A stretch of 37,585 bases of DNA from a virus (Duplodnaviria; Heunggongvirae; Uroviricota; Caudoviricetes), in IMG/VR virus record IMGVR_UViG_2541047802_000015; one strand, given 5' to 3'. The notes below the pieces were generated by a model. The model ran no database searches. It saw nothing but the letters and a program-made list of their open reading frames with translations, and was not told where the DNA came from. The translations under genes were made by a program, and so were the position numbers. Below are positions 620 to 16,907 of the stretch, piece by piece (positions within the stretch are counted from its first letter, which is position 1; each line of letters begins with the position of its first letter).

Positions 620-648
620 TCAGGAGAATGGAGTCTGGTGAGTGAGAT

Positions 649-1071: not shown

Positions 1072-1445
1072 TGTTTCACCTCCGGGTGCTTACCCAGGAT
1101 AATATTATTTACCGTTCTGTAATTGTCGCGGGTCATCAGGCCGGTCGCCCTGCGAGCCCGGAGGATATCAATACTGTTTATTAACTGAGAACGGGTACAG
1201 GCGCTGAATCCCGGCTGGTCGGTACGTACCAGTGCGTATTTTTCAACGAGAAAGTTCACCGCATCGCACAGTGAAATGCCTGCCTCAATATGCTGCTCAA
1301 TCACACGTTCATCAGCGAACGGTGTGTCATTCAGCGTAAGGCCGTAGTGCTGATCCAGCAGTCGGGTGAGCAGTGTCTGCCAGATTTCAACCGGAGACGG
1401 GCGTGAACTGGCCGCCTGCCCGGGTAATACAGGTAATGTTTTCAT
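1068..1445 (-). CDS. cbtA: CbtA/YeeV-family type IV toxin (cytoskeleton-targeting)
   Basis: 125-aa protein beginning MKTLPVLPGQAASSRPSPVEIWQ, matching my memory of E. coli YeeV/YkfI/YpjF; sits directly downstream of its antitoxin. Confidence 0.8.
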   Translation of the reverse strand: MKTLPVLPGQAASSRPSPVEIWQTLLTRLLDQHYGLTLNDTPFADERVIEQHIEAGISLCDAVNFLVEKYALVRTDQPGFSACTRSQLINSIDILRARRATGLMTRDNYRTVNNIILGKHPEVKQ

Positions 1446-1533
1446 ACTGAAGATTTTCCTGATATGCAGAGATGAAAAATGGAAAAGTGGCGTGGTGAAA
1501 GCACCAGGCCGAGCAGAAGGTTATTCTGGAGAG

Positions 1534-1902
1534 TTACTTTTTCGTTTCGGGCGTCGGATAAACAGCCATATAAACGTAGCCACAACTGCCGAGGGTGTCG
1601 GCTTCGCAGGTCAGCCCTTTTGCATACAGCGTGACGGTATGCTGATGGCGGGGATTCAGTTCACCGCTGGTGAGCATGAGTTCCAGTTGTTTCATCAGCA
1701 GCGGAAAGGCCTGGTCCAGGTGGTACGAATCCGCGTCGCTGAACCGCCCTCTGATACCGGCGCGGTCGGCAAGGTAATGCAACCGGTTGCCTTCCTGTAC
1801 CAGACGGGCACCAAAACAGGGCGTCACGGTGCAGGGCAGTCCCCACCAGGTACGGTCGTTATTGTCGTCGGGAAGCGTTGTCCCGGGGAGTGTGTCTGAC
1901 AC
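1534..1902 (-). CDS. cbeA: CbeA/YeeU-family type IV antitoxin
   Basis: 122-aa protein beginning MSDTLPGTTLPDDN...WWGLPCTVTPCFGARLVQEGNRLHYLADRAG, matching the remembered YeeU/YfjZ family; paired with cbtA. Confidence 0.8.
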   Translation of the reverse strand: MSDTLPGTTLPDDNNDRTWWGLPCTVTPCFGARLVQEGNRLHYLADRAGIRGRFSDADSYHLDQAFPLLMKQLELMLTSGELNPRHQHTVTLYAKGLTCEADTLGSCGYVYMAVYPTPETKK

Positions 1903-1981
1903 GATAAAATCCTCACAGAAAATTGGTTAAGAATGGTCCGGTGGTGGCGATAATTCTGCTCTTCTGAATGCCCTTCCAGAC

Positions 1982-2203
1982 TCAGTTCAGGGTGACGCTC
2001 ATCAGCCGGACATACGGACCAAAACTGTCCTTCCGGCGTTCTGCAAACACGGCCAGCACACAGGGAATATCCTGTACTTCACGGCCGGTATATGTATCCG
2101 TGCTACCGTGCCAGCGGTATTTACCGGTACAGAACGGAAAAAGACGGGATGCAGGATGCTGACGGTGAATACGCATGGCTTCACCACGGGTGATGATTTT
2201 CAT
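1982..2203 (-). CDS. DUF987 (YeeT/YkfH-like) protein
   Basis: 73-aa protein MKIITRGEAMRIHRQHPASRLFPFCTGKYRWHG... typical of the small gene between radC-like and cbeA in CP4-type islands. Confidence 0.75.
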   Translation of the reverse strand: MKIITRGEAMRIHRQHPASRLFPFCTGKYRWHGSTDTYTGREVQDIPCVLAVFAERRKDSFGPYVRLMSVTLN

Positions 2204-2289
2204 GAGAATAGTCCTCCTGAATGTGAAAGTAAGAAACAGCTGAGAAAGAGAAACTGAAGTGATATGAAGGTGATTGTGACGGTGACGGG

Positions 2290-2766
2290 TTAAAGCAGAC
2301 CGTGTTCCGCAAAGGAGAAAACCTGGCTGCCACCGACTATCAGATGGTCCGGCACCCGGATATCCACCAGGCCCAGTGCCTGTACCAGACGTTCCGTGAT
2401 AAGGCGGTCTGCCTTGCTGGGTGTGACTTCACCGGACGGGTGATTGTGTGCCAGCACCACAGCAGCGGCATTGTGATACAGGGCGCGTTTAATCACTTCC
2501 CGGGGATGGACTTCCGTGCGGTTGATGGTGCCGGTGAAGAGGGTTTCACCGGCAATCAGCTGATTCTGGTTGTTCAGATACAGCACCCGGAACTCTTCCC
2601 GCTCCAGTCCCGCCATGTTCAGAATCAGCCATTCTCGTGCCGCACGGGTGGAGGTGAAGGCCACGCCGGGTTCATGAAGATGGCGGTCCAGGGTTTTCAG
2701 GGCCCGTTGAATGAGGCTGCGCTCACCGGGCGTCATTTCTCCGGGCAGAAAGGAAATCTGTTGCAT
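2290..2766 (-). CDS. RadC-like JAB-domain protein (YeeS/YkfG/YfjY family)
   Basis: 158 aa with the JAB metalloprotease motif HNHPSG and a conserved RadC-like C-terminal region. Confidence 0.8.
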   Translation of the reverse strand: MQQISFLPGEMTPGERSLIQRALKTLDRHLHEPGVAFTSTRAAREWLILNMAGLEREEFRVLYLNNQNQLIAGETLFTGTINRTEVHPREVIKRALYHNAAAVVLAHNHPSGEVTPSKADRLITERLVQALGLVDIRVPDHLIVGGSQVFSFAEHGLL

Positions 2767-2780
2767 TGTTCCGGCCCCTT

Positions 2781-3260
2781 TCAGTCAATGATGCGCATAA
2801 TGGCGCTGCATTCCGGATGCTGCAGGGCGTAATCCCGCAGCCGGTAATAATGGACCGTCATGGCATAACATTCCGTACGACAGGCATGATGGCTGTACGT
2901 CATCAGACAGGCGGCAATACCGGCAGCTTCCGGACTCATTTCAGCGCGGTTACCGTTCATGGCATTGAACAGTACCCATGTTTCGTCATCATCGTCATCC
3001 GGTTCAGGTGCCATAAATGCGCCACCGTTGTTCAGGGTGTACAGATTCCAGATGCCCCCGCAGTAGTCTTCGCACAGACGGTCCATCCAGCCGAAGACAC
3101 GGGGCTCCAGGGTCACCCACTGTGGAATGAGGCCAAAATGCTGCGGCCAGAAGCTGATACGTTGTTCATCAGGGACGGGAGTAGCAACCAGTTGGGGCTG
3201 GTTATTCCCTGGTGCTGTGGCTGAAGAAAGAGCAGTTGTGTTCTGAGAAACGATTTTCAT
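2781..3260 (-). CDS. antirestriction protein (KlcA/ArdB family)
   Basis: Acidic DDDDDE stretch and family-like core; start refined to the internal Met at 3260 (MKIVSQ...) preceded by AAGGA; the track ORF runs to 3317. Confidence 0.75.
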   Translation of the reverse strand: MKIVSQNTTALSSATAPGNNQPQLVATPVPDEQRISFWPQHFGLIPQWVTLEPRVFGWMDRLCEDYCGGIWNLYTLNNGGAFMAPEPDDDDDETWVLFNAMNGNRAEMSPEAAGIAACLMTYSHHACRTECYAMTVHYYRLRDYALQHPECSAIMRIID

Positions 3261-3312
3261 GAGTGAAATCCTTACAATGTGTATAAATGAGAGGAAATAA
3301 AGGCCGGGGGCT

Positions 3313-3359
3313 GACATGATCAGACATGAGATAAATGAAGGGGGATCCGTGAGATAAAT
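3313..3359. repeat. short direct repeats upstream of the klcA-like gene
   Basis: GACATGA at 3313 and 3323; TGAGATAAAT at 3327 and 3350; non-coding stretch between island genes and prophage genes. Confidence 0.4.
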
Positions 3360-3677: not shown

Positions 3678-4310
3678 TCATTCATCGTTCGTTGCACGAA
3701 CGCGCCTGATCTCCACTCTGGCAATCTGATCTGCTGGAATATAGGTTGCCAGAGCTCCCCAGTACTTATCAACCACGCCTTTATACTCTTCCCATTCGTT
3801 ACTGCCTGAAGGGCTGCTGTGCGTGACGTAAAGAACCATATCGCCTTTATTCCCCAGGGTAAACGGACCGTTAGGCCACTCTTCAAAGTTCCCTGGCAGC
3901 CGTGACATCATACCGGAACCATCGCGAAGAATCACTCTGACCTCGGTAACGCTGAAGCCTGTTTGATCAAACATTGCCTGCCATGCTGAGCTGGTATCGT
4001 CAGACCATGAAATATCATTATTCCACAGTAATCTGTACATCCATTTGCGACCGTACCTGCGCCACCACGCACCGCATGTAACGGCACACAGAAGTGCTGG
4101 TGGTGTTGCCAGCCAGGCATTCAGACCTGCCCACATAACAGCCTGGTAAGCCATCATTGCTGTCAGGCCAAAAATCAGCGAAGAAAAAGTCACCTCAATG
4201 GGCTTGTGGTGATCCTTCAGTCCCACATTCGCAATAAAATACCCAATATAGCCACTGGTCAGGGTCACCAGTGTTGCCCATGGCAGATTTAACAACGAAA
4301 CGTCAAACAT
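3678..4310 (-). CDS. membrane protein of unknown function (3 predicted N-terminal TM helices plus soluble C-terminal domain)
   Basis: Start refined to the Met at 4310 (MFDVSLLNLPW...) with GGGAG RBS; hydrophobic N-terminal third; terminal gene of the leftward phage arm. Confidence 0.5.
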   Translation of the reverse strand: MFDVSLLNLPWATLVTLTSGYIGYFIANVGLKDHHKPIEVTFSSLIFGLTAMMAYQAVMWAGLNAWLATPPALLCAVTCGAWWRRYGRKWMYRLLWNNDISWSDDTSSAWQAMFDQTGFSVTEVRVILRDGSGMMSRLPGNFEEWPNGPFTLGNKGDMVLYVTHSSPSGSNEWEEYKGVVDKYWGALATYIPADQIARVEIRRVRATNDE

Positions 4311-4424
4311 ATTTTCTCCCTGCATCCTGAATACTAAAGAGAGAGCATAAAAAAAGCACGGTAAGGGGTCTACCGTGCTTTTATACAATAAGGAGATTTT
4401 TGAAAGGACTTTAACAAGCAGGAA

Positions 4425-4823
4425 TTATCTGGATTTGTTAACGTCTTTCGTCTCCTCTGGCAGATCTTCATCAAACAACCTGCCCTGCATCCGATCCAGT
4501 TCTTCTTTTCTGACCCGCTTAACCACGCTGTAGACCCACTGAAGCGAAACACCAAACTTGCGGGCCAGTTCGTGGTGGTTGCGTCCGTTAAACTCCCTGA
4601 AGATTTCCCGGTCGCGCTGACTGACCTTCCATACCATGCCCATCGGGAAATAAACGTTTTGCCCGCCCCAGACCTGCATCATTCGGTTCGCGACGGCCTG
4701 ACCAATCTGGTCGGCAATTGCGGGCTCAATATCAATAATCTCGCGAACGGTCTCAGAGGTATGCTGTGCCAGCTCCACCAGGAGTTCCGGCCCTTTACTT
4801 CGAAACTGATTCAGGTCGCTCAT
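4425..4823 (-). CDS. Mor/C-family transcriptional activator (candidate late-gene activator)
   Basis: 132 aa; C-terminal HTH region with DREIFREFNGRNHHELARKFGVSLQWVYSVV resembling the Mu Mor/C family. Confidence 0.65.
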   Translation of the reverse strand: MSDLNQFRSKGPELLVELAQHTSETVREIIDIEPAIADQIGQAVANRMMQVWGGQNVYFPMGMVWKVSQRDREIFREFNGRNHHELARKFGVSLQWVYSVVKRVRKEELDRMQGRLFDEDLPEETKDVNKSR

Positions 4824-5452: not shown

Positions 5453-5672
5453 TCTGAATATCCCCCCAACTGATATGAATATTACGGGCAGCAATGACAG
5501 GGTCGTTATTCCACCATGCACCTGACATGTATTTTTCAACCTGTTCGCGTCCGGCAATAACACCAATTGTGATCCCCGGCCTGACGTTCTTAAAAAAGGC
5601 GCGGGCAAAAAGGTATCTGGCAGATATTCGGCAGGCTTTTAATTTCCGGCTGTTACCTGATAGCGTAATCAT
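5442..5672 (-). CDS. hypothetical small protein (76 aa)
   Basis: Start overlaps the stop of the upstream gene (ATGA arrangement at 5669-5672), suggesting coupling. Confidence 0.3.
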   Translation of the reverse strand: MITLSGNSRKLKACRISARYLFARAFFKNVRPGITIGVIAGREQVEKYMSGAWWNNDPVIAARNIHISWGDIQNDG

Positions 5673-6352
5673 CTGGCCTCCAGTTTCTGTTGTTCCTGCC
5701 CACTGACCGGGCGGTGCAGTCTGACGTTCTGCCCTTCACGAAACCCCGCATAGCGCGAGGCGTCGCCATTGCGGCTTCTTCCCGGTTTACGCGCCCTGGT
5801 GGTTTGCGTCTGCGGGTATTTATGTTCCAGCCACTGCTGCATCAGTTCACGCTCATCATCGGTCAGGGCAAAGGACTGTATTTCACTGATAACGGCCAGC
5901 ACCCAGCCTTCGGCAAACTGGTCTCCACGGCTGGTGCGGGTGGCGGTTTTTATTCTTTTGTTCTGTGCACTGATATACTGCTGACGCGCCTTTTTCAGCT
6001 GACGGGCCAGCACTTCCCAGGTGTATGCAGCCAGTGCCGCACGTTCCCGGTTGCCGTAGAACCCCACAGACGGATGCGTGCCGGGGTGAATGATGGAGTT
6101 AACACCAAATACCTCGCGGATGATGTTCATCAGGCCTGGCATGTAGCGCGGTGGACGGAGACTGCCTGTCGGCCAGTAGTGACTGATGGTTTCATCAATA
6201 TCACTCATAGCAATGTCGGAATGTGTGATGCCGTGAACATCCATCAGTTTACGGGCTCGGCGCAGTGCCAGAGCGGCCTCGTGCGGGTTGCCGGATGCGG
6301 CCAGCGCCAGCAACTTTTTCAGTTTCTCAATGTGTTTATTCTGGTCTGTCAT
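5669..6352 (-). CDS. phage protein, DUF2786-like N-terminal domain
   Basis: Start refined to 6352 (MTDQNKHIEKLKKLLALAASGNPHEAALALRRARKLM...); ATGA overlap with the upstream ORF stop. Confidence 0.5.
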   Translation of the reverse strand: MTDQNKHIEKLKKLLALAASGNPHEAALALRRARKLMDVHGITHSDIAMSDIDETISHYWPTGSLRPPRYMPGLMNIIREVFGVNSIIHPGTHPSVGFYGNRERAALAAYTWEVLARQLKKARQQYISAQNKRIKTATRTSRGDQFAEGWVLAVISEIQSFALTDDERELMQQWLEHKYPQTQTTRARKPGRSRNGDASRYAGFREGQNVRLHRPVSGQEQQKLEAR

Positions 6353-6564
6353 TGTTCTGTATCTCCGGTATTTTTCTGCCGTTTCCATGCCCGGACAGCG
6401 TCGGACAGCTCTTTCAGGCTGTATGCTGCTTTAAGCTTTTCCCATAACCACTGTGTTGTTATGTGCATCAGCAGGGCAGCCAGGGCTGCCCCCGCACTGA
6501 GGCATGTCGCCAGGCCAGTAAGAATCAGTATCCATGCGGTGATTTCCCTGAGTATGTCAGCCAT
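6349..6564 (-). CDS. small membrane protein (71 aa)
   Basis: One strongly hydrophobic segment (WILILTGLATCLSAGAALAALLM); translationally coupled to the next gene. Confidence 0.4.
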   Translation of the reverse strand: MADILREITAWILILTGLATCLSAGAALAALLMHITTQWLWEKLKAAYSLKELSDAVRAWKRQKNTGDTEQ

Positions 6565-6578
6565 TGAATGCCTCCCGG

Positions 6579-6875
6579 TTACTCGTTCGTGTAAATCACG
6601 CCCAGTCGTGCAGCCAGACGTTCCAGTTTTTTCTGTTTGTGGAAGTCAATCAGCCGGTCCATCCCCTGAAGGCGCAATTGCTCTGTCATGATTTCCACGT
6701 CTGCCAGCTCTGCCGCGAGGTCGCTTTCGCTGCCCTGTCCGTTCAGATTGCGGGCAGCACTGGCCGCCAGTTCAGCGGCCTCTTCTGTCAGTTTCAGGGC
6801 CTGTGCGTCCGGCCCGAAACGCTGCAGGGCCAGACGGTAGAGGGCGGTGCGGGTGAGTATGGTGTTCCGTGTCAT
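6579..6875 (-). CDS. MazG-like nucleotide pyrophosphohydrolase domain protein
   Basis: 98 aa, all-alpha; KLTEEAAELAAS and ELADVEIMTEQL resemble MazG-family EExxE/D motifs (from memory). Confidence 0.45.
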   Translation of the reverse strand: MTRNTILTRTALYRLALQRFGPDAQALKLTEEAAELAASAARNLNGQGSESDLAAELADVEIMTEQLRLQGMDRLIDFHKQKKLERLAARLGVIYTNE

Positions 6876-6884
6876 GCCGCGCCC

Positions 6885-7157
6885 TCAGTGCTTCCGGCTG
6901 ACGGTGATGTGCAGGCCGCCTTCTGCAGTGGTTTCCATCCGGTACGGCACCTCATGCTCTGCCGTGTGGGTGAGTGTGTTCATCAGTACCTGCAGGGCAG
7001 CCGCCTTTCCGTTGGTTGCCACAATGGCCTGTGTGGTCATGCTGATTAGCGCCGTCAGGACGTGCTTCACATCGGTGAGGTCGCGGCATTCACACTCGTT
7101 GACATAGTGTTCAACAAGGGTTCGGGTGCGCTGTCGTGCTTCCTGTGGGGTAATCAT
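6885..7157 (-). CDS. hypothetical protein (90 aa)
   Basis: ORF in the early operon frame series; overlaps neighbours by 4 nt. Confidence 0.4.
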   Translation of the reverse strand: MITPQEARQRTRTLVEHYVNECECRDLTDVKHVLTALISMTTQAIVATNGKAAALQVLMNTLTHTAEHEVPYRMETTAEGGLHITVSRKH

Positions 7158-7348
7158 TGCGAGTCCTCCCTGTCAGGGCGGGAGAATTCCATGACGGGCA
7201 CGTCTGCCGAAAAATGCTGGCTGCAGTACGGGCAGACCAGGGTGACGCGTACCGCAGGGATGTGGTATTTACCGGACATCACGGCGATGGCGCTGTGAAA
7301 ACGCAGGGCTGTTATATCCCTCTCGCACTGAATACATTTAAATATCAT
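7154..7348 (-). CDS. zinc-ribbon-like small protein (CxxC...CxxC)
   Basis: 64 aa with CIQC and CPYC pairs; GAGGAG RBS upstream. Confidence 0.45.
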   Translation of the reverse strand: MIFKCIQCERDITALRFHSAIAVMSGKYHIPAVRVTLVCPYCSQHFSADVPVMEFSRPDREDSQ

Positions 7349-7445
7349 GATTTAATTCTCCTCTGTTTCCGGCGTGCAGAAGCCCGCGGCGCTGACGCCG
7401 GAATAAAAAAGAAAATGTTTTTATTAAATAATTAACGTGGTGTGT

Positions 7446-7976
7446 TTACTGCACATCCTGCTCAAAAGGAATTATTGAAAAATCCTCAATGTCGCTTTTA
7501 ATGGAAATACCGGGAATATTTTTCACGGCCTCTTTTTCATTCAGGATAGCGTCTTTATTTATTTCCTCTTTTACACGAATAAAGCGCTCAAGCCCCAGAC
7601 GTCTCAGTAATTCAATAACATTATCCGCCCCACGGATACTGACTGATGGCGGACGGTTTCGCCACTGCACCTCGCCGGTGGTAAGGTTAGCGAACTTCAC
7701 CTTCCCGTTGCCGGTCAGTTCATCACGGTGCGCCTCACACCATGTCTGGATACCGGACTGCAGTTCGGCCATGCGTTTTTTCAGGCTCTCGGTGAGCGGG
7801 GCATAACGTGCGGTGATATCGCCAATGGCGTCATTCATTTCTGTTTCAGCCCTGACCAGTTCACGTTGTGCGTCACCGAGTAGTCTGATTCCCTCAATGA
7901 CCTCTTCGCGTGTCCCTGGTACCCAGAGTGCCGCTGCGGCCTTGATACGTTTTGCCCCTTTTGTACTTTTTGCCAT
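7446..7976 (-). CDS. gam: Gam-like host-nuclease inhibitor (Mu Gam family)
   Basis: 176 aa; the ETEMNDAIGDITARYAP and KSDIEDFSIIPFEQ regions closely resemble my memory of Mu Gam. Confidence 0.8.
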   Translation of the reverse strand: MAKSTKGAKRIKAAAALWVPGTREEVIEGIRLLGDAQRELVRAETEMNDAIGDITARYAPLTESLKKRMAELQSGIQTWCEAHRDELTGNGKVKFANLTTGEVQWRNRPPSVSIRGADNVIELLRRLGLERFIRVKEEINKDAILNEKEAVKNIPGISIKSDIEDFSIIPFEQDVQ

Positions 7977-8003
7977 ATTTTATGATTTCTCCGGTTGTGC
8001 TGA

Positions 8004-8273
8004 TTACCACAAAGATTCCGGCCACACGACGCGACAGCCGTGCAGTTCGAAAACGCCCTGACGGAAATATCCCCTGTGGTCATGTCCGGTATACAGATAA
8101 CAGGCCTTTCCCTGCTCAAGCATGCGCATGCAATGCGCACTCCGGGAAACGCGGATGACAGGTTTGTTACCCCTGATGGTGATGCTTTGTACATCCGTGT
8201 TCGTCGCCTTAAGCGCCATAATGGCTGACTGCACTTTGCTGATTTGCTGGTTGATACCTGTGGTGGATTTCAT
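8004..8273 (-). CDS. hypothetical protein between B and gam (Kil-position)
   Basis: 89-aa ORF; position is analogous to kil in Mu, with no sequence-level support. Confidence 0.4.
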   Translation of the reverse strand: MKSTTGINQQISKVQSAIMALKATNTDVQSITIRGNKPVIRVSRSAHCMRMLEQGKACYLYTGHDHRGYFRQGVFELHGCRVVWPESLW

Positions 8274-8275
8274 TA

Positions 8276-9442
8276 TTAAACTCCTTTGACAACGTCAGCG
8301 TTGACCTGTGGAACCCCGATTTCAGCGGCCAGATTCATGGCGGCTATTACCAGGTTACTGACGGCCAGCGGATACAGCAGGCTGACCATATTTTTACGAT
8401 GACTTCCCGGATTGCTCAGGCGGGCACGTATGGCATCCACTGCGCTGGCGTCCATAATGTCCGTCAGTTGTTTACCGGCCCGTTGCAGTTTGAACGTCAG
8501 AAATTCTTCAAGGTTATTGTCCAGAGGCAGAAGTTCGACCACCTCACAGCGCTGAACGACTTCACGGACTTCCATATTGCGTTCAGACAGTTTTGTCGCC
8601 AGTTCCGGCTGGCCAATCAGCACGATGGACAGCAGTTTTTTGAAACCGGACTCCAGCTCAAAAAAGCGTTTGAGGTGTTTCAGTGTCGGAATGGGCAGAC
8701 TGTGGGCCTCCTCAATCACCAGAACGTGGCTGAACCCCGCCTGGCTGCTGTCTTTCAGGACGCGATGCAACTGGCGAAAGCGGGCGTCCTGACTGCGTCT
8801 GATGCTTTCCAGTGGTGCGATGGTACTGATAATGGCTTCGGCAATAGCTGCTGCCTTCAGGGTTTTCCCTTTCACATCGTTGTCTTCCATAGCGATGATG
8901 TATGGCTCGATAACAATTACCGGCGCATTCTCGCGGTTAATACGTTCAGTCAGGTCGCGGCGCAGCGTGGATTTACCCGCACCGGACTCACCGATGACGG
9001 CCATAAACCCACCATGACGGGCTGTCTGGTACAGCGCCTCACGCACGTAGCGAATGTCCGGGGTGGTGAACACATCATCAGAACCCTGCATGGCTTCATC
9101 GGCGAACGGGTCACGGAAAAGACCAAACGCTTTTTTGGTTGCTGGAAATAACACCTGTTTTTTGAGTAACATATTCTCTTCCTCACTGAGGCTCGTTTTA
9201 TCTGTGGTACCCGCTGTACGGGGCGTGGCCGCGCCCTGTACAGCATCAAAACTCTTCGTTGTATCAATCCCCTGACTTTCCAGCCAGGACGCAAGACGCC
9301 GGCGCACTTCTCCGGGGCTGGTGCGGGGCCACGCGTTATGATTCACAATCTGGGCCAGCGTGGCCTCAGAAACATCGACAGCTCTCGCCGCCACCGCCTG
9401 TGGAATACGGGCCTCTTTCAGTTGCTGCTTCAGTACCAGCAT
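8276..9442 (-). CDS. transposition ATPase B-like protein (HTH plus P-loop)
   Basis: Walker A GESGAGKST and Walker B-like HVLVIEEAH; start refined to ATG at 9442 with GGAGG RBS; directly downstream of the transposase. Confidence 0.75.
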   Translation of the reverse strand: MLVLKQQLKEARIPQAVAARAVDVSEATLAQIVNHNAWPRTSPGEVRRRLASWLESQGIDTTKSFDAVQGAATPRTAGTTDKTSLSEEENMLLKKQVLFPATKKAFGLFRDPFADEAMQGSDDVFTTPDIRYVREALYQTARHGGFMAVIGESGAGKSTLRRDLTERINRENAPVIVIEPYIIAMEDNDVKGKTLKAAAIAEAIISTIAPLESIRRSQDARFRQLHRVLKDSSQAGFSHVLVIEEAHSLPIPTLKHLKRFFELESGFKKLLSIVLIGQPELATKLSERNMEVREVVQRCEVVELLPLDNNLEEFLTFKLQRAGKQLTDIMDASAVDAIRARLSNPGSHRKNMVSLLYPLAVSNLVIAAMNLAAEIGVPQVNADVVKGV

Positions 9443-9452
9443 GTTTCCCTCC

Positions 9453-11222
9453 TCAGTTGCCGTTAACAATGCTGATAACGCTGCTGCGGGCCGGCGTGGT
9501 CAGCGTGGCCATGACTTCATCCAGTGCGGCTTCCGGTACGCCGTCCGGGTACTGTGCTGTTAACTGGCGGTAATGTTCCGGCGTCCAGGTCAGGCCGTCG
9601 GCGCTGAACTTATCGCGCAGGGCTTTCGCGGCCTCCACATGAGTCATGGGACGCTGTTCAGTGCGCGGTCCGCGTACGTCAGAGGCCTGACCACGCTTCG
9701 GTATACAGGCCGGAAGTGTGGCGTCATCAATATGTTTATACGGGTCAAGCCGCCCGCCGAACGGCAGCGCCTTCGCCTTGCGTGCGGCAGCTGCATCTGC
9801 GGCGTTGTCTGTACCGGTGACCAGCGCTTCGGTTTCTTTTGCCGCCATCTGCGCCGGGGTTTCCGGCAGGGCTTTGTAACTTTCGCCAAATACCGCCGCG
9901 CCTTCAGCAAAGCCAAACTCGTTCTTTCTGACCTCTTCGACCAGGAAGAACGTCTCGTGGCCGTCCTCACCGGTCAGAACCACCTGTGCCACATCGCTGC
10001 GCCACGGGTTACGGGTAATCATCAGTTTTTCACCGACCAGTACGCCCGGTACCGTTGATACGTCAAATTCAGTGCCCCGGAACGAGACACGAAGTTTTGG
10101 CGTGACTTTGCGGAGTTCTGGTGCCGCCACAGCCAGTTCACGACATACCTCAACGGAAGGCGCTTTTTTCAGCTGCTCAGCAGTAATCTTCAGCCAGATA
10201 TCCGTGCGGGTTTTACCGTGGCGGCTGTGAACAGCCGTGGCGTTAAAGTGGCTGCGCCATTTCGCGGCCAGCGCGTTGAGTTCTTCCAGACTGTGAACCG
10301 GCCGGAACTTCAGACCCGGCTCCAGCTTGCGTTCGATAATGTCACGCGCCTTTTCCACCTGTCCGGTGGCGCGGGCGTTATGCGGCTTGTGCGCTATCAG
10401 GTCGATGCCCAGTGAGCGGCACATGTTTTTCGTCATACCCGCGGTGTTTGCCGAGCCGGGGTCGAGATAGAGTATTTTTGGCACGCCGTGCAGCACGTCT
10501 GCGCCGCCACGCTCCTGCATGGCGTTGATAAGCACAGAACACAGGTTCTCACCGGATTCCGCACCCGTCACATACTCAACGTAAATCCAGCCGCTGGCAT
10601 GGTCGGTAATCTCGTAACTCCACACGCGGTCACTGGCGATACGGGCAAGGTTAGCGGGCTTGTTTTTGTAGAATTTCGCGCTGTCCATCACCTGCAGCCC
10701 TTTATGTCCATTGCTCAGGTAGTAAAGCGTGCAGAGTGAGGCGTCAATCTGCCAGACATGATTGGGGTGCAGACTGGCCACTTCGGTATGCGGTGCAGGG
10801 GCATCCAGTTGTTCCGGGTGCAGGCCATAGTTACGCAGGGCACGACTGATGGCATCTTCGGACAACGGGAAAAACTCACCGGTGGTTTCATCTGTTCTGC
10901 CTGCGGAGATAAAGCCGTTAGCCCGCAGGGTTTCCACTGCATCCGCGATGGAATAGAGACGCTTACCGTTCTTGCGGGTGGCCTCACGTAGTGTGGCAGA
11001 TATCAGCGCGGCTTCGTCGCGGGTCAGGGTGCTGCGTCCGGCATCGGCGCGTTTTTTGCGTTTATCAGTCACAGAGACCTCCTTCAGCCTGCGCAGCAGA
11101 GTGGCGCGGGACATGCCAAGTTCAGCACAGGCAGCGTCGTATATTGCACCGCGTTTACCATGCCCCGCATTACGTGCCGCGCGGGCTGTTTCAACAAGTT
11201 TTTCAGTCAGTGCCGGGGTCAT
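9453..11222 (-). CDS. Mu-type DDE transposase (A protein, integrase catalytic core)
   Basis: 589 aa; N-terminal HTH; candidate DDE residues in VWQIDAS, LYLDPGSANT and ATGQVEKARD. Confidence 0.85.
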   Translation of the reverse strand: MTPALTEKLVETARAARNAGHGKRGAIYDAACAELGMSRATLLRRLKEVSVTDKRKKRADAGRSTLTRDEAALISATLREATRKNGKRLYSIADAVETLRANGFISAGRTDETTGEFFPLSEDAISRALRNYGLHPEQLDAPAPHTEVASLHPNHVWQIDASLCTLYYLSNGHKGLQVMDSAKFYKNKPANLARIASDRVWSYEITDHASGWIYVEYVTGAESGENLCSVLINAMQERGGADVLHGVPKILYLDPGSANTAGMTKNMCRSLGIDLIAHKPHNARATGQVEKARDIIERKLEPGLKFRPVHSLEELNALAAKWRSHFNATAVHSRHGKTRTDIWLKITAEQLKKAPSVEVCRELAVAAPELRKVTPKLRVSFRGTEFDVSTVPGVLVGEKLMITRNPWRSDVAQVVLTGEDGHETFFLVEEVRKNEFGFAEGAAVFGESYKALPETPAQMAAKETEALVTGTDNAADAAAARKAKALPFGGRLDPYKHIDDATLPACIPKRGQASDVRGPRTEQRPMTHVEAAKALRDKFSADGLTWTPEHYRQLTAQYPDGVPEAALDEVMATLTTPARSSVISIVNGN

Positions 11223-11237
11223 AGCTTGTCTTCCCTG

Positions 11238-11555
11238 TTATCCGATTCTGGCGGCAATTTTTCTGGCACGGTCGCGCAGGGTTTCGCCATCGCAGGTTTT
11301 CACCACGTTATTTACCGGTTGCGGCGCAACTGCCGGGCGCAATGCTGACTGATGCTGCAGACGTCTTATCTGCTGCATCAGCATCACTTCCATCGTCAGT
11401 ACAAACGGATGCGCCTCCTGTGCGGGTACGCAGATTTCACCGGAAGGTGTCACCACGCGGAAACCCTGCACCATCTCCGGCAGCAGATTACACAGTGCGT
11501 GCCCCAGTGCCTCCGGGCTGTCCATCAGGATATTTTGTGTGTTATCCGTGTTCAT
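11238..11555 (-). CDS. hypothetical protein (105 aa)
   Basis: ORF immediately upstream of the transposase in the same orientation. Confidence 0.4.
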   Translation of the reverse strand: MNTDNTQNILMDSPEALGHALCNLLPEMVQGFRVVTPSGEICVPAQEAHPFVLTMEVMLMQQIRRLQHQSALRPAVAPQPVNNVVKTCDGETLRDRARKIAARIG

Positions 11556-12472
11556 TACTGCATGCCCTCCGGTCGGTTGATTTCAGGCTCCGGTTCGGTC
11601 AGCCATGCGGGGACATCGTTACCCGATGGTGCGGCATCAAGGTCGAACGTCTCACGCAATGCATGAACACTGCGTTCAATCTGGCAGACCAGACCGGCCA
11701 TGAAATCTCTGGGGGTATCAATCATGTTTTTACTGCAGTATTCACACAGGGTTTCAAAGGCACCGGAGAGCCGGACGGCGATGGCAGATTCCGCCTCAAC
11801 CGCTAATGCGGTCACTTCCGCCCGCAGCTTCTTCACCTCTTCATCAGGCTCAGGCGGTTGAATACGGGATTTCTTCTCCAGTTTTGTGGCCAGTTCGTTG
11901 ATTTTTTCGTCCTTTCCGGCAAGCACCTGTTGCTGAGCTGCGTTAGTTTCGCGCGCTTCACGCAGGGCCTGGCGAAGTTCACGTACTGACATGCGATCAA
12001 CATCATCAAGCGTCAGGCCGGCAACTGTGCCGCCGTCGGCCAGTTCGGCAAGGTCTTCATCGTCTTCAGCAACAAGTTCAAATAATTTTGCCTTACCCAA
12101 AAGCGACAACGTTGTCGCTTTTGGCTCTAGTTTTGGTGAAAGGTATTTCAAAGATGCTTTCATCATTCGTTGTGCTGCGCGCACGTGCAAACCAAGTTGT
12201 TCTTCTACAATTCCAACAAAGTCCCCGTGTGGCTCATTTTCTTTTAAGATGATCAGCCGTTTACCCGCTTCCAGCATAGATTCAGCACTCTGCGCCATAT
12301 AAAAACGTGCTTCGTGAACGATGCGATCACGTTCATAAGGCAGTCCATCACCAAACTGCTGCATGATCTCCATGCGATGCTGTGTCATGGCATTCAGGCT
12401 GACGTTGAGATCATCCGACAGCGGTACCTCGGCGTTCAGTTCAGTGTTAACCGGTGATTTGGTGCGTCCCAT
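11555..12472 (-). CDS. phage early protein with coiled-coil region (possibly DUF3102-like)
   Basis: 305 aa; Glu/Ala-rich central coiled coil; family assignment is tentative. Confidence 0.45.
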   Translation of the reverse strand: MGRTKSPVNTELNAEVPLSDDLNVSLNAMTQHRMEIMQQFGDGLPYERDRIVHEARFYMAQSAESMLEAGKRLIILKENEPHGDFVGIVEEQLGLHVRAAQRMMKASLKYLSPKLEPKATTLSLLGKAKLFELVAEDDEDLAELADGGTVAGLTLDDVDRMSVRELRQALREARETNAAQQQVLAGKDEKINELATKLEKKSRIQPPEPDEEVKKLRAEVTALAVEAESAIAVRLSGAFETLCEYCSKNMIDTPRDFMAGLVCQIERSVHALRETFDLDAAPSGNDVPAWLTEPEPEINRPEGMQ

Positions 12473-12482
12473 TGATTACTCC

Positions 12483-12797
12483 TTACAAACGACTACCTGA
12501 AATGACACGTTGGTTGATTTCGTTAATGCGATCCTGTGCACGTGCCATCTCGTTACTGTGGGCCATGGCGATCTGCAGCAACTGGATGCCCGGTGCGAAA
12601 CGCCCGTTTTCCAGTTTCAGGGCCAGTCCTTCTTCAATGAGGGTGTTGAGTGCCCGGTTGATGTTTGCCGGTGACTCGTGCAGTGCTGCCGCCAGTTCAC
12701 CATTGGAAATACCGTTCAGGGCATGACCGCGCAGCGCTTTGAGTACCCGGAGGATGCGACTGCCGGAGCTTGAAACATTCGTCTTACTCATCTGCAT
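12483..12797 (-). CDS. winged-helix DNA-binding protein
   Basis: 104 aa; ILRVLKALRGHALNGISNGELAAAL...INRALNTLIEEGL resembles a MarR/IclR-type wHTH. Confidence 0.45.
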   Translation of the reverse strand: MQMSKTNVSSSGSRILRVLKALRGHALNGISNGELAAALHESPANINRALNTLIEEGLALKLENGRFAPGIQLLQIAMAHSNEMARAQDRINEINQRVISGSRL

Positions 12798-12843
12798 ACC
12801 TCTTTTGCGATATGTGATAACCTTTTACAAAGAATCAAAATAT

Positions 12844-13032
12844 TCAGGCTGCCTGAGCTGTTGATTTCAGCCCCAGTTTCACGGCGATTTCATGGGATTT
12901 ACCGTAACGTGCTTTGCTCTGCCCATTGAGAACGCGGTATACCTCATTGCGGTTGTAGCCGTTTTCTTCTGCCCAGCGGGTGAAAGTGATCCCGCGCTGG
13001 CGGAAGAGAGCTTTGACTTGTTCTGCAGTCAT
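12844..13032 (-). CDS. Ner-like DNA-binding protein (first gene of the early operon)
   Basis: 62 aa; RYGKSHEIAVKLGLK parallels the Ner/Nlp WPKGE-IIA-ALG motif; strong AAGGAGA RBS; divergent from the repressor gene. Confidence 0.6.
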   Translation of the reverse strand: MTAEQVKALFRQRGITFTRWAEENGYNRNEVYRVLNGQSKARYGKSHEIAVKLGLKSTAQAA

Positions 13033-13132
13033 CGTTGTCTCCTTTGTTGATGCAATGATGTTTGCCTTATGTGTGATAGATTATGGTGCAGATTATCTCA
13101 CCAGTCAACTTAAAGAGTGCAGAAAAACTCAC
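13033..13132. promoter_or_regulatory. divergent early/repressor control region with candidate operator
   Basis: 100-bp gap between divergent Ner-like and HTH genes; imperfect inverted repeat GTGATAGAT...ATCTCAC at 13073-13101 with two AGATTAT copies. Confidence 0.4.
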
Positions 13133-13471
13133 ATGATCGGGTTACGTATTAAAGAAGAAAGAGAGCGTCTATCTCTTACACAGCAAGGGTTGGCTGATGC
13201 TATCGGTGTGGCAAAGAGAACTTTTATTGATTGGGAAAAAGATCGCACTTCTCCTACTGCAGTGCAGTTATCTGCACTATCAGAAATCGGTGTAGATGTT
13301 TTGTATGTAGTTACTGGGGTGCGGAGTCAGCCTGTTGTTGCACCTTATATGTCACAAGAAAAGAAAGAGTTAATGGATGCATTCGACGAGATGAGCCCCG
13401 AACAACGGAGGGCAATTCTTGAGGTCGGCAAAGTCTTCATTCAACCCAAACCAAGCAAACTCGCAGGCTGA
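13133..13471 (+). CDS. XRE/Cro-CI-type HTH repressor
   Basis: Start refined to ATG at 13133; LSLTQQGLADAIGVAKRTFIDWEKDRTSP is a canonical XRE helix-turn-helix; 112 aa with no peptidase domain. Confidence 0.6.
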   Translation: MIGLRIKEERERLSLTQQGLADAIGVAKRTFIDWEKDRTSPTAVQLSALSEIGVDVLYVVTGVRSQPVVAPYMSQEKKELMDAFDEMSPEQRRAILEVGKVFIQPKPSKLAG

Positions 13472-13557
13472 TTCTGACCTGGACAGAAAGGACAGGTGGT
13501 TGATCTGGATGCTTTCAGAAAACGCCGTCAGTAGCATGGCAGAAATCGGCGGGCTTA

Positions 13558-13591
13558 CCGGAAAGCACTGTACTTTCCGGTTATGGCTTTT
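13558..13591 (+). terminator. putative intrinsic terminator between convergent repressor and dam genes
   Basis: CCGGAAAG/CTTTCCGG 8-bp stem with 7-nt loop, followed by TTATGGCTTTT on the plus strand. Confidence 0.45.
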
Positions 13592-14354
13592 AGAAATTGC
13601 AGATCACCAGCTCACGGCGTGGAGTTGATTTGCCTGCCAGACTGTAGTTGATGTTCACTGTCTGTATGTTCAGTCCAGTGAACACCTCGCGCATCTGCGG
13701 GATGTCGTTCACCGAAATTATCATCTTTCCTCTGATGCACCGGGCCAGCTCTGCCAGCCGCGAGTAGTTCCCTTCAGGAAAATCCACACCATAGCCTTCT
13801 GTACCCAGATACGGCGGGTCACAGTAGAACAGCGTGTGCGGACGGTCATAGCGCTCAATGCACTGTTGCCAGTCCATGTGTTCTATCACCGTTCTGGAAA
13901 GCCGCAGGTGTGCCGCTGACAGTTCTTCCTCGATACGCAGCAGGTTGAAGCGTGGCGGGGATGTGGTGGAGGTGCCGAAGCTGTGCTCTGCCACCTTGCC
14001 GCCAAACGCCTGCTTCTGGAGGTAGTAGAACCGTGCTGCACGCTGGATATCCGTCAGTGTTTCTGTCGGGGTGATCTGCAGCCATTTGTAGATCTGCCGG
14101 CTGACCAGCGCCCATTTGAACTGGCGGACAAATTCTTCCAGATGATGTTTTACCACCCGATACAGATTTACCAGTTCACCATTGATATCGTTAATGACTT
14201 CGAGCTTACCAGGTGTCTTAAGAAAATAGAGCGCTGCTGCGCCGCAGAACGGCTCCACGTAACATTCATGCGCCGGAAACAGCGGCAGGATGTGTTTTGC
14301 CAGGCGACGTTTGCCACCAATCCATGGAACGATGGGTAATGTCTGCATTTTCAT
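13590..14354 (-). CDS. dam: DNA adenine methyltransferase (Dam family, N6-adenine, D12 class)
   Basis: 254 aa; catalytic DPPY motif and N-terminal FxGxK-type AdoMet-binding region; no restriction endonuclease partner in the window. Confidence 0.85.
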   Translation of the reverse strand: MKMQTLPIVPWIGGKRRLAKHILPLFPAHECYVEPFCGAAALYFLKTPGKLEVINDINGELVNLYRVVKHHLEEFVRQFKWALVSRQIYKWLQITPTETLTDIQRAARFYYLQKQAFGGKVAEHSFGTSTTSPPRFNLLRIEEELSAAHLRLSRTVIEHMDWQQCIERYDRPHTLFYCDPPYLGTEGYGVDFPEGNYSRLAELARCIRGKMIISVNDIPQMREVFTGLNIQTVNINYSLAGKSTPRRELVICNF

Positions 14355-14459
14355 AATCTGTAAGCCTTTTACAATTATTAAAAATATGGCAGGCTAGTCT
14401 GGTCTCGCGAGACTGACTGAACCCCGGTCGGCTCACAGCGCATTCCTGTGGGACGATGG

Positions 14460-14500
14460 CCAGCCCGGTGGGTCCGAAGCACCGGGCTGGTCGTTCTTTC
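14460..14500 (+). terminator. GC-rich hairpin with downstream T-tract (plus-strand terminator-like) upstream of dam
   Basis: 11-bp stem (14460-14470 pairs with 14480-14490), 9-nt loop, then TCGTTCTTTC; no annotated plus-strand gene ends here. Confidence 0.35.
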
Positions 14501-14546
14501 ATGATGCGGCAGGGATGAAGTGATTTCTGTTAATGTGGTTTAGGGA

Positions 14547-14762
14547 TTATCCGGGGCGATTTTCTGACCTTATCTGGTCCAGGGCATAAGTGATCCCTTC
14601 TGCAAAAACAGAAGTATCAAACTGCTTTTGTATTTCCTGAAAATGAACAGTGGCACGACAGACACTCAGTTCTCCGCGATGTAACCGGATAATATCTTCC
14701 AGAACATTGTTCACTGCTTCGGCACGGCGCTGATGTTCTGTTAACGTTAATCGGGGATTCAT
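14547..14762 (-). CDS. hypothetical protein (71 aa)
   Basis: ATG at 14762 preceded by AAGGAG with 6-nt spacer; no family recognised. Confidence 0.4.
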   Translation of the reverse strand: MNPRLTLTEHQRRAEAVNNVLEDIIRLHRGELSVCRATVHFQEIQKQFDTSVFAEGITYALDQIRSENRPG

Positions 14763-15139
14763 GATGCACTCCTTAAATGATGATTTTTATGTACTCACCG
14801 GCAAAATATTCTGCCGATTACTGAACACGCATCCGGCTCCTCAGGTTTTGATTTATTCTGGTTTTTTCGATATCCCGGACCAGGTTGATCACGACAGAAA
14901 AAGTGCCGGTATTTTATTGATACGCTGATATGGCTTCGGGATAACAGCTATATTCGTTACTCTCAGTTGCTGGCTGTGGGAGCGGCTGATGTCGTCCTCA
15001 CGGAAAAAACGCTCTGTCTGCTCAATGCCATGCCGACCTTTCTGCAGCCCCGGCCCGTACCATTTAAAGAGTCACTTCTGGATGCAGTAAAAACCGGTGA
15101 AAATGCAGTCATCGCTGAATGCGTATCCCGGATTATGCG

Positions 15140-15688
15140 TTACGTGTTTAATGAACGTAAGTGAGGTTTATCCGCTGTCTGCATAATCCCGATAGCCAGT
15201 GCGAGGGGAAGCAATTCCGGGGAAACTCTTTCAAACAGCGATTCCCATTCTCCTCTCGCCATCACTCTGTCCAGCCCGCCCTCCAGCTGCATTTCAGCAA
15301 TCTTCCTGATTTCCCGGAACAACGCCGCTTTGATCTCTTCATGCTCAGCTTTATTTTCCGGTGTCAGAATGTATTCGTCGAAGAACCGGGGAGGCTGGTT
15401 AACGGGGGGCATGTTCACCGGGATGTGTTCCTGTATCCCGTACTCCGGGGCTGAAAAACATTTTGTTGTCTGACCGGTGAGTTTGCGTAACACCTTCATG
15501 AGTTGCTCCTGAAGCAGCTCATTCGTCCGACAGATACGCTCGTCGTCCACAACTGCGGCATCGACAATGACGCTTTTTCCAAATTCCTTTTTCACCATCT
15601 CTTTTATACGCGTCAGAACGTAACTTTTACCGCTGCCTACAGGCCCGGACACTCTGACGGTGATGGTCGGCTTCGGTGTGACTGTCAT
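15140..15688 (-). CDS. small P-loop NTPase/kinase-like protein (182 aa)
   Basis: Start refined to the Met at 15688 with AAGGAG RBS; Walker A GPVGSGKS near the N-terminus and Walker B-like VIVDAAVVDDE. Confidence 0.5.
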   Translation of the reverse strand: MTVTPKPTITVRVSGPVGSGKSYVLTRIKEMVKKEFGKSVIVDAAVVDDERICRTNELLQEQLMKVLRKLTGQTTKCFSAPEYGIQEHIPVNMPPVNQPPRFFDEYILTPENKAEHEEIKAALFREIRKIAEMQLEGGLDRVMARGEWESLFERVSPELLPLALAIGIMQTADKPHLRSLNT

Positions 15689-15747
15689 TCTGTATCTCCT
15701 TTGTGAGTGATCCAGCGTGTATTCTGCATACCCCGAACACGCCTCTC

Positions 15748-15792
15748 TCTTAACGCGCTTTAAAATCCTCCGCGCCACGCTTTTGCCATGCT
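15748..15792 (+). promoter_or_regulatory. putative late promoter upstream of the lysis cassette
   Basis: Conserved block TCTTAACGCGCTTTAAAATC, 19-nt spacer, then CATGCT; same architecture recurs at 23148, 29058 and 35148. Confidence 0.5.
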
Positions 15793-15819
15793 GTCTCCAC
15801 ACAACAAGGAGACATTTTC

Positions 15820-16170
15820 ATGAAACCATTCACTTCCCTTATCGTTGACGTACAAAAAACCCGCCTGCGTGGATGGCTTGTTGCGGCCGTGCTGCTGCTC
15901 CTCATCATCGCGCTGGTCTCACCCCAGCAGTTGCCGGTGGTGGTGTACAAGCTCTCTCTCATCTCCCTCGCCGCCGTGCTCGGCTACTGGCTGGACCGCT
16001 CACTCTTCCCGAAGGCCCGTCCGGGGCAGTACCTGAAGCATGACGAGCGCCTCATGGCTGAGGGGCGCTGGCCCGTACAGACCGGCCTTCACCTGGTGTT
16101 TTCTGCTGCGTTAATCCGCCGTGCACTGATTGTTGCAGCTGTCTGTCTGGCTGTTGCGATGGGGCTTTAA
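15820..16170 (+). CDS. putative holin / lysis membrane protein (first gene of the late arm)
   Basis: 116 aa with 2-3 hydrophobic helices; AAGGAGA RBS; immediately precedes the transglycosylase. Confidence 0.45.
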   Translation: MKPFTSLIVDVQKTRLRGWLVAAVLLLLIIALVSPQQLPVVVYKLSLISLAAVLGYWLDRSLFPKARPGQYLKHDERLMAEGRWPVQTGLHLVFSAALIRRALIVAAVCLAVAMGL

Positions 16171-16172
16171 TC

Positions 16173-16907
16173 ATGAACTGGCCACAGAGCACCTGGATTG
16201 TATGCATGTCCCTGAAACTGGCTTTCGAAGCCTTTCTGGTCTTCATCAGAACCGAACGCCTGTCAGTCCGTGTCGGGACCTTTCTGGTTCATATGGCATG
16301 GGTATTCTTTGTCGCAATGTTGCTCTGGTGTGGCGGCTTCTTCAGTCAGGCCCGCGCAGCGCAGCCTCCGCAGGCTGCGCTGCAGTATCGCGATGATGTG
16401 ATCCGTAATGCCCGGCTTGAATGGGGGCTGTCTGCGCCGGTGGCCGATTTCGCCGCGCAACTGCATCAGGAAAGCGGCTGGCGGACTGATGCGGTCTCGC
16501 CGGTGGGCGCTCAGGGGCTGGCGCAGTTTATGCCCGCCACCGCTGACTGGATAAGCCAGTTGATGCCGGCGTTGAGCAGTCGTGAGCCGTTTAATCCGGC
16601 ATGGGCCATCCGGGCGCTGGTCAGCTATGACCGCTGGCTGTGGCAGCGCATCAGCGCCGCCAGTGACTGCGAGCGTATGGCCATGACACTGTCGGGCTAT
16701 AACGGTGGTCTGGGTTGGGTACAACGGGACAGGCGGCTCGCATCACAGAAAGGTCTGGACAGCACCCGCTGGTTCGGACATGTCGCCACGGTGAATGCCG
16801 GACGCAATGCTGCCAGCTGGCGGGAGAACCGCCATTATCCGCAGCGCATCCTGCACGAACTGGCCCCCCGTTATCTGACATGGGGGGGCGGCAGCTGTGT
16901 GGACTAA
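16173..16907 (+). CDS. lytic transglycosylase endolysin (SLT domain) with N-terminal signal/SAR-like segment
   Basis: SLT motif region ESGWRTDAVSPVGAQGLAQFMP; hydrophobic WVFFVAMLLWCGGFF followed by ARA-AQ; true start may be the internal Met at about 16293. Confidence 0.75.
   Translation: MNWPQSTWIVCMSLKLAFEAFLVFIRTERLSVRVGTFLVHMAWVFFVAMLLWCGGFFSQARAAQPPQAALQYRDDVIRNARLEWGLSAPVADFAAQLHQESGWRTDAVSPVGAQGLAQFMPATADWISQLMPALSSREPFNPAWAIRALVSYDRWLWQRISAASDCERMAMTLSGYNGGLGWVQRDRRLASQKGLDSTRWFGHVATVNAGRNAASWRENRHYPQRILHELAPRYLTWGGGSCVD

Follow-up and report, generated by a model that had tools for sequence, protein, structure and literature searches.

Three kinds of described system come close to the locus considered here, the block of genes at positions 13590-15688 of the IMG/VR virus record IMGVR_UViG_2541047802_000015 (Caudoviricetes); the whole 37,585-nucleotide (nt) stretch of that record is called the window below. 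Orphan Dam methyltransferases of phages, such as P1 Dam/Dmt, T4 Dam and the Dam proteins of Stx and other prophages, belong to the D12 class (PF02086), lie in phage accessory regions without a partner nuclease and are under strong purifying selection. The com-mom operon of Mu consists of late, C-activated DNA-modification genes of a transposable phage. Finally, the gp18-gp20 genes of BcepMu and the moron loci of temperate phages occupy a position between repressor and holin, and their content varies between related phages.

The block in the window shares features with each of these systems and is identical to none. Its Dam resembles the phage orphan Dams in domain, DPPY motif and size, in the absence of a partner nuclease, in its accessory location and in the strength of purifying selection; it differs from them in being distant from both Escherichia coli Dam (EcoDam) and DpnM (E = 1e-17 to 1e-14, approx. 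22-25% identity) and in that the residues by which EcoDam contacts GATC are not conserved in the alignment. As in com-mom, a DNA-modification gene of a transposable phage is found at the edge of the late region, with a probable Mor/C-type activator site approximately 42 base pairs (bp) upstream and what would be a promoter without a -35 element. However, the predicted modification is N6-methyladenine (m6A) rather than the Mom-type adenine modification of Mu, no Com-like zinc-finger protein is encoded (the 71-amino-acid (aa) protein of the block has one cysteine only), and location and orientation differ. The repressor-holin position and the variability are those of the BcepMu slot and of moron loci, but the sequences are unrelated to gp18-gp20 and lie on the opposite strand, and BcepMu has no Dam there.

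We consider, with a probability of about 0.55, that the block as a whole is best explained as the cargo slot of a BcepMu-like prophage, holding an orphan Dam and a partly decayed cassette, that its 182-aa protein is not a kinase, and that its leftward genes would be expressed late. An original prediction, made by a model from the letters of the window, had described three leftward genes (Dam, a 71-aa open reading frame (ORF) and a 182-aa P-loop protein) as an accessory block with a possible kinase and a possible role in lysogenic conversion, anti-restriction or defence. As a prophage cargo slot the block is ordinary; of that description, the orphan Dam holds and the kinase does not. New here are a frameshifted fourth gene, the deleted state of the P-loop protein, a 75-aa mini P-loop module, a travelling cassette and a conserved dyad. 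The biological interest of the block is modest.

A variable slot between repressor and lysis genes

The layout of the region was taken from the PGAP annotation of the LH10-b-1 prophage copy (E. coli), which is 100% identical to the window over the block. In LH10-b-1, a leftward early operon (Ner-like and IclR-like regulators, DDE transposase, MuB-like ATPase, Gam, gp16 and Mor) is followed by a rightward repressor gene, then by the block under study, and then by a rightward lysis and late operon with genes for holin, SLT transglycosylase, a Mu gp27-like protein, terminase, portal, and head and tail proteins. This gene order is of the BcepMu type, and the block therefore sits between the immunity region and the late genes, where the original prediction had placed it. 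The window itself reads as an E. coli BcepMu-like (enterobacterial) transposable prophage. Indeed, the Escherichia phage PhiKM, of the genus Bcepmuvirus, is 90% identical to it across a stretch of 2.8 kilobases (kb) around the block. Sequence related to the block is present in 636 of 5,426 complete E. coli genomes (approx. 12%); 12 of these 636 are 100% identical over the block (compared over window positions 13400-16200, i.e. 2.8 kb), and three more are 99.6-99.7% identical.

What the slot contains changes from one prophage to another. BcepMu carries the unrelated gp18-20 genes, KP12 a DUF2441 gene and Citrobacter unrelated genes for proteins of 93 and 113 aa, and differing gene combinations are found in prophages of Serratia, Citrobacter and other E. 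coli. This variability supports the earlier view of an accessory slot. The three leftward ORFs of that view are likewise all present (254 and 71 aa, see table 1; 182 aa, 15140-15688 on the - strand), but the count of three genes does not hold, since a 134-aa gene on the + strand had been missed. On this gene content, the block is a predicted variable cargo slot of four genes between the repressor gene and the lysis/late operon.

An orphan Dam methylase

Only one part of the block has an activity that can be assigned. The Dam protein matches PF02086 (E = 1e-28, 101 bits against a cut-off of 22), phrog_56 (E = 4e-100) and the PADLOC profile MTase_II (E = 1e-112), and passes the NCBIfam model TIGR00571 marginally (116.8 bits against a cut-off of 114.85). 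Its DPPY motif lies within FYCDPPYLGTEGYG and is aligned to the DPPY of both DpnM and EcoDam. The gene is under strong purifying selection, the ratio of non-synonymous to synonymous substitution rates (dN/dS) being 0.03-0.09 at a synonymous divergence (dS) of 0.27-0.48. Its relatives at 52-65% identity are uncharacterised Dam genes of Burkholderia, Pseudomonas and Stenotrophomonas phages, the closest being those of Burkholderia phage vB_E438 (65%) and Pseudomonas phage Bise (62%).

No nuclease appears among the named products of the LH10-b-1 prophage annotation, in which several products are called only ‘hypothetical protein’, and Pfam, PHROGs and PADLOC scans of the slot neighbours of Dam gave no match to a nuclease family. 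The earlier description of a Dam with DPPY and without a cognate nuclease is upheld on each of these points, and the gene is best read as encoding an orphan methylase without a nuclease partner, which would methylate adenines in phage (and host) DNA. Such an enzyme could add an m6A motif to the approximately 12% of complete E. coli genomes carrying a related block.

The tetranucleotide GATC is under-represented in the window (1-37585), with 97 sites versus 153 +/- 10.6 expected from shuffles. None of these sites falls within 5575-11994, a gap of 6.4 kb that spans the transposase A and B genes.

A P-loop protein with two internal deletions

The 182-aa protein matches phrog_3787, a profile of 242 positions, in two stretches (E = 6e-89), and a 247-aa relative, WP_000194949, matches positions 1-242 of the same profile (E = 4e-164). 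Proteins of phrog_3787 normally measure 242-247 aa; aligned with them, the 182-aa protein has two in-frame gaps, one of 36 aa after residue 51 and one of 29 aa after residue 59. It is, on this alignment, a phrog_3787 member in doubly deleted form.

An exhaustive profile search over 1.84 billion representative proteins yielded 68 relatives. The part common to these representatives is limited to residues 1-75 and is always N-terminal, the remainder being a patchwork of short modules, and several stand-alone proteins of 73-90 aa are among the relatives. The 75-aa module consists of a strand, the motif GPxGxGKS, a helix, a second strand, a conserved E50, a conserved W61 and a strand of the form hhhLEE (approx. 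residues 66-75). The best match of its profile in the PDB is the Walker-A segment of ABC ATPases, to whose strand, P-loop, helix and strand it aligns (E = 2e-5), and designed minimal phosphate-loop proteins (PDB 6c2u and 9jix) were matched as well (E approx. 1e-3). Compared with ABC and other NTPase domains, it is devoid of Q-loop, signature motif and the remaining NTPase core, and is approximately one-third as large as such a P-loop NTPase domain; in the window it is shorter still, at 51 residues.

The earlier claim that this protein has Walker A and Walker B-like motifs holds for the first of them and fails for the second. The Walker A sequence GPVGSGKS is present at residues 15-22 and is nearly invariant in the family. 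The sequence VVDDE is also present (residues 46-50), but its counterpart in the alignment is a loop with E50 as the sole conserved residue, and VVDDE is not the Walker-B-like element of the family, because that element, the hhhLEE strand, is deleted from the window copy together with W61. Since the module is cut to 51 residues and has lost the conserved tryptophan and the hhhLEE strand, nucleotide hydrolysis by this copy appears unlikely. Conservation in the 182-aa protein is found in the C-terminal module of approximately 80 residues, for which dN/dS is 0.06-0.19.

A frameshifted fourth gene and a travelling cassette

The 377-nt stretch between the 71-aa and 182-aa genes, which had been taken as a spacer, is a + strand gene for a 134-aa protein. 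Its intact homologues match phrog_2266 (E = 3e-44). The gene is annotated and intact in AREA_487, PhiKM, L016 and LH50-c, and a homologue 53% identical to it is placed and oriented alike in Serratia prophages. The window copy has lost one C at 14894/14895 (GACCAG to GACAG), and the frameshift splits the gene into ORFs of 55 and 65 aa, with no intact frame left. All twelve 100%-identical genomes, whose hosts differ, share this 1-nt deletion; the gene is intact in LH50-c, which is 99.7% identical and has identical Dam, 71-aa and 182-aa proteins. The deletion is real and recent. The annotation of this region is corrected accordingly: the fourth gene is easily missed, and this prophage carries a decayed version of the cassette to which it belongs.

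The 71-aa protein, for which no recognisable family had been seen, belongs over its full length to phrog_4490 (E = 5e-51, positions 1-71 of 71), a family of unknown function. The strong ribosome-binding site attributed to its gene was found, as AAGGAG 7 nt upstream of the ATG. In Serratia prophages a 73-aa homologue, 35% identical, has the same position.

Three of these elements seem to keep company. Serratia BcepMu-like prophages have, in the place of the 182-aa protein, an 89-aa protein that is 48% identical to the C-terminal module and has no P-loop part, flanked by homologues of the 134-aa and 71-aa proteins and by Dam. Among the loci examined, those in which the protein at that position is without the C-terminal module (L017 and L019) are also missing the 134-aa/71-aa pair. 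Moreover, window positions 14500-15400 are 96-100% identical between E. coli prophages whose flanks are 70-90% identical, and dS in the cassette is 0.01-0.09 versus 0.27-0.48 in Dam. Because of this co-occurrence, high identity and low dS, the 71-aa gene (-), the 134-aa gene (+) and the C-terminal module (-) are interpreted as a cassette of approximately 0.9 kb that is exchanged between prophages as a unit. The low divergence of 14500-15400 has two candidate explanations, a recent exchange of the cassette and constraint acting on both strands. Within the cassette, the genes are packed head-to-head and tail-to-tail: the CATGATG overlap of the 71-aa and 134-aa starts and the 25-nt overlap of the 134-aa and 182-aa 3' ends both recur in Serratia.

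In some E. coli lineages, a 126-aa paralogue of the 134-aa gene, belonging to phrog_2266 (E = 1e-35), lies between the 71-aa gene and Dam (L016 4893-5273; L017 4220-4600). The window has only the hairpin 14460-14490 at that position and is without the 126-aa paralogue.

Probable late expression from a divergent control region

The region separating the 182-aa and holin genes contains a dyad, TTAACGCGCTTTAA. A -10-like hexamer is found 30.5 nt from the dyad centre on either side, CAGAAT leftward (15726-15721) and CATGCT rightward (15787-15792), and neither side of the dyad at 15750-15763 has a -35 match. The leftward hexamer is conserved across genera, as cAnGAT at a fixed distance. With up to three mismatches, the dyad pattern occurs six times in the window (0.59 expected), one occurrence lying upstream of the baseplate genes (35150-35163). 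The exact pattern TTAANGCNCTTTAA was retrieved in 17 of the 20 fetched loci, including those of Serratia and Citrobacter, and in every locus whose annotation was inspected a match stands just upstream of the holin gene. BcepMu itself (L012 11485-11520) has a similar but degenerate element, with a downstream CATGC.GTC box, before its holin gene.

Promoters of Mu that are activated by proteins of the Mor/C type have a dyad activator site approximately 42 bp upstream and no -35 element. The prophage encodes one Mor-family protein (LH10-b-1 annotation), which corresponds to 4425-4823 in the window, and the dyad is probably a late activator site of the Mor type. No terminator-like site was found on the - strand between the 182-aa gene and Dam (15140-14355). 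From the conserved dyad, the mirrored -10-like hexamers, the missing -35 element, the Mor-family protein and the absence of a - strand terminator, we infer that the leftward genes, Dam included, are most likely read late, along with the lysis genes.

The promoter of the leftward genes would be activator-dependent and form, across the shared dyad, the mirror image of the late lysis promoter. Dam would then be made late and could methylate progeny DNA before packaging, with an anti-restriction or regulatory role comparable to that of Mom or of P1 Dam, and the small proteins would act as late-expressed host-interaction factors. Through this conserved dyad, the control of late genes in BcepMu-like phages of enterobacteria becomes open to experiment.

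Citrobacter braakii ATCC 51113 has the exact dyad a second time (L019 5051-5064), between the 113-aa gene and Dam and approximately 190 nt upstream of Dam. Its spacing fits a promoter of neither neighbouring gene well.

Objections and alternative explanations

Several observations weigh against the interpretation of the block as a late-read cargo slot with an orphan Dam and a decayed cassette. For the methylase, the phmmer alignment places P, G, K, A and S at the EcoDam positions K9, N120, L122, R124 and P134, which read GATC, the alignment of the loop being uncertain. Because these residues are not conserved, GATC specificity should not be assumed, and the benefit of Dam in a host that already has Dam would depend on its target site. 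For the 182-aa protein, both deletions recur in a second lineage (84% identical), in which Walker A has been kept. The 51-codon remnant has a dN/dS of approximately 0.5 versus 0.14 between two long forms (small counts in both). The short form is not a fresh wreck, and the remnant may therefore still be functional. The structure models are too poor for any fold claim outside residues 11-70: the AlphaFold model of the 247-aa relative has a predicted local distance difference test score (pLDDT) of 59 and is confident over those residues only, and that of the 134-aa protein, at pLDDT 57, is too poor to classify. For expression, a simple sigma-70 scan found no leftward promoter; a third, weaker dyad-like site lies at 4399-4414(-), after mor and before the terminator, where the spacing does not fit; and the promoter and activator assignments derive from motif position and conservation only.

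Profile and structure-prediction searches, which the original prediction had proposed as checks, placed the small proteins in families (phrog_3787 and phrog_4490) and gave poor models and no function. Scans of all slot proteins and their distant relatives with Pfam, PHROGs, NCBIfam and PADLOC detected no functional family beyond Dam, and PDB sequence and profile searches of the non-methylase proteins returned Walker-A similarity only, with no match for the 134-aa family. In PADLOC-DB v2, the matches were methyltransferases and, as the best of the others, Walker-A-only similarities to SngB (E = 4e-4) and Csx3 (E = 3e-3); the 71-aa, 134-aa, 126-aa, 89-aa and 73-aa proteins had no match. A search of viral contigs for the context of distant mini-P-loop proteins gave nothing or a false positive (a helicase, L014), and literature searches around BcepMu and Bcepmuvirus, methyltransferase and DUF2513 brought up nothing on these genes. 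For the small proteins, function thus still cannot be assigned, as had been stated at the outset, and the suggested defence or anti-defence cassette has found no positive evidence, everything in PADLOC other than methyltransferases being noise.

One alternative, which we hold to be rather improbable, is a cassette for lysogenic conversion or superinfection exclusion, expressed from the repressed prophage in the manner of lambda rexAB and sieB or P2 old and tin. On this view Dam would change the methylation of the host, and the role of the small proteins would be to fend off other phages from the lysogen. The position beside the immunity region is typical of morons, the content is highly variable with cassette-like exchange, and the block is frequent in E. 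coli genomes. However, neither a sigma-70-like promoter nor a -35 match was found for the leftward genes, and the sole conserved element upstream of them is the dyad shared with the late promoter. Furthermore, no homology to known defence proteins was found, and the 134-aa gene is frameshifted in 12 complete genomes that are otherwise 100% identical to the window in the 2.8-kb block.

It is somewhat more doubtful that the block, Dam excepted, is decaying and functionless cargo in this window. The 134-aa frameshift, the removal of conserved P-loop residues by two internal deletions and the rise of the remnant dN/dS above that of the long forms would all be expected of such decay. Yet the deletions are in frame and the 182-aa frame has been kept in two diverged lineages, the C-terminal module is constrained as described above, and the 71-aa gene is intact, with a dN/dS of 0.1-0.4.

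The 75-aa module might conceivably be a natural, autonomous minimal phosphate-loop domain, serving as a nucleotide- or phosphate-binding sensor or as a decoy of a host ATPase and not as a piece of a canonical NTPase fold, and the fused 0.9-kb cassette a late host-interaction (counter-defence) unit; we regard this as speculative and improbable. The copy in the window is truncated, and the module itself is a curiosity possibly worth biochemistry.

The proposal of a small nucleotide or small-molecule kinase for the 182-aa protein, which would work together with Dam and the 71-aa protein in a cassette for defence, anti-defence or anti-restriction, is very unlikely. An intact and conserved Walker A speaks for it, as do weak matches to the UreG, guanylate kinase and AAA-type families and a variable, recombining slot that recalls arms-race loci. 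But all P-loop matches in Pfam and NCBIfam (AAA_35, AAA_30, KAP, PhoH, UreG, guanylate kinase and ABC) are below the curated cut-offs and confined to approximately 30-60 residues around Walker A, and the window copy of a module that is only about 75 aa long is without its last third, the acidic strand included. The 182-aa protein has neither a full alpha/beta NTPase core nor an above-threshold match to any NTPase or kinase family, no lid or substrate-binding domain is detectable in it, and PADLOC recognises methyltransferases only in the block. Assignment to a housekeeping kinase family, the outcome named beforehand as contradicting a role in conversion or defence, was not obtained with the profiles either. 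In E. coli NR301 (L005 3241-3789), PGAP calls the identical protein ‘P-loop NTPase family protein’, whereas it is a ‘hypothetical protein’ in other genomes; the label rests on the Walker A motif alone, and a ‘P-loop NTPase’ or ‘small kinase’ label should not be propagated.

An antisense-controlled switch or toxin-antitoxin-like module, in which the 134-aa gene is antisense within the leftward transcript and one strand silences the other, is equally implausible: the head-to-head CATGATG starts and convergent 3' overlap conserved from E. coli to Serratia, the extreme conservation of DNA on both strands and the frameshift of one partner (a common fate of toxin genes) would suit it, but the searches matched no toxin or antitoxin family, an Rfam scan of 12500-16500 gave no RNA family, the 71-aa gene was not seen to contain a promoter for the + strand gene, and some loci have a paralogue of the 134-aa gene in the absence of the partners.

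Coordinates, rejected candidates and flanking DNA

Table 1. Positions of the slot and of its immediate neighbours in the window, from left to right.
Feature	Position	Strand	Evidence and remarks
Helix-turn-helix (HTH) repressor gene	13133..13471	+	Convergent with Dam; PGAP ‘helix-turn-helix domain-containing protein’ in LH10-b-1; ORF list
Hairpin with T-run	13557..13581		On + strand, with the T-run there; no U-tract after it on - strand; likely to terminate transcription of the repressor gene
Orphan Dam-family (D12 class) N6-adenine DNA methyltransferase, 254 aa, DPPY	13590..14354	-	PF02086, TIGR00571, phrog_56, PADLOC MTase_II, dN/dS
Dam/71-aa intergenic region	14355..14546	-	11-bp hairpin 14460-14490 (T-run on + strand only)
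71-aa protein, phrog_4490	14547..14762	-	Strong ribosome-binding site; start codon overlaps + strand gene start back-to-back (CATGATG)
134-aa gene, phrog_2266, pseudogene here	14761..15164	+	Missed by the original prediction; 3' end overlaps 182-aa gene 3' end by 25 nt
C-terminal module of 182-aa protein (approx. residues 100-182)	15140..15391	-	D-x-V-x-x-R-x-x-W motif; conserved and constrained
Linker with two deletion junctions	15392..15535	-	After codon 51 (15536|15535, 36 aa) and after codon 59 (15512|15511, 29 aa)
Remnant (residues 1-51) of 75-aa mini P-loop module	15536..15688	-	Walker A 15623-15646; E50 kept; W61 and hhhLEE absent
Divergent control region, 131 nt, between 182-aa and holin genes	15689..15819	.	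Dyad at 15750-15763
Holin, first gene of the lysis/late operon	15820..16170	+	PF13272 Holin_2-3 in homologous loci

Some other candidate features were considered and set aside. The 182-aa ORF, which starts at ATG 15688, lies inside a 220-aa ORF with a GTG start (GTG at 15802); this longer version was rejected, as all homologues start at the internal MT.T and as only 17 nt would then separate its start codon from that of the holin gene. The 134-aa gene was also considered as part of an invertible segment, but it is not flanked by any inverted repeats that could be found. Pfam did not reproduce the label DUF2513 that UniRef gives to a Serratia homologue of the 134-aa protein. Two short direct repeats near the 71-aa gene (D2 and D17) were judged likely to be due to chance.

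Outside the slot, window positions 1-3322 are host DNA, a CP4-type island of E. coli that is 99.9% identical to many strains and encodes an antirestriction protein, a JAB-domain protein, the CbtA/YeeU toxin-antitoxin pair and DUF4942. The left end of the prophage lies at approximately 3323-3340. A separate leftward gene occupies 3678-4310, between this end and a strong hairpin with a T-run at 4349-4382 (-), which is located immediately 3' of the mor gene and is likely the terminator of the early operon. In LH10-b-1, the related prophage copy is inserted in tnaB instead, as expected of a transposable phage. The two prophage copies also differ from each other, because the tape-measure gene at 29623-32313 measures 2,691 nt in the window versus 2,952 nt in the LH10-b-1 copy, i.e. 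261 nt fewer.

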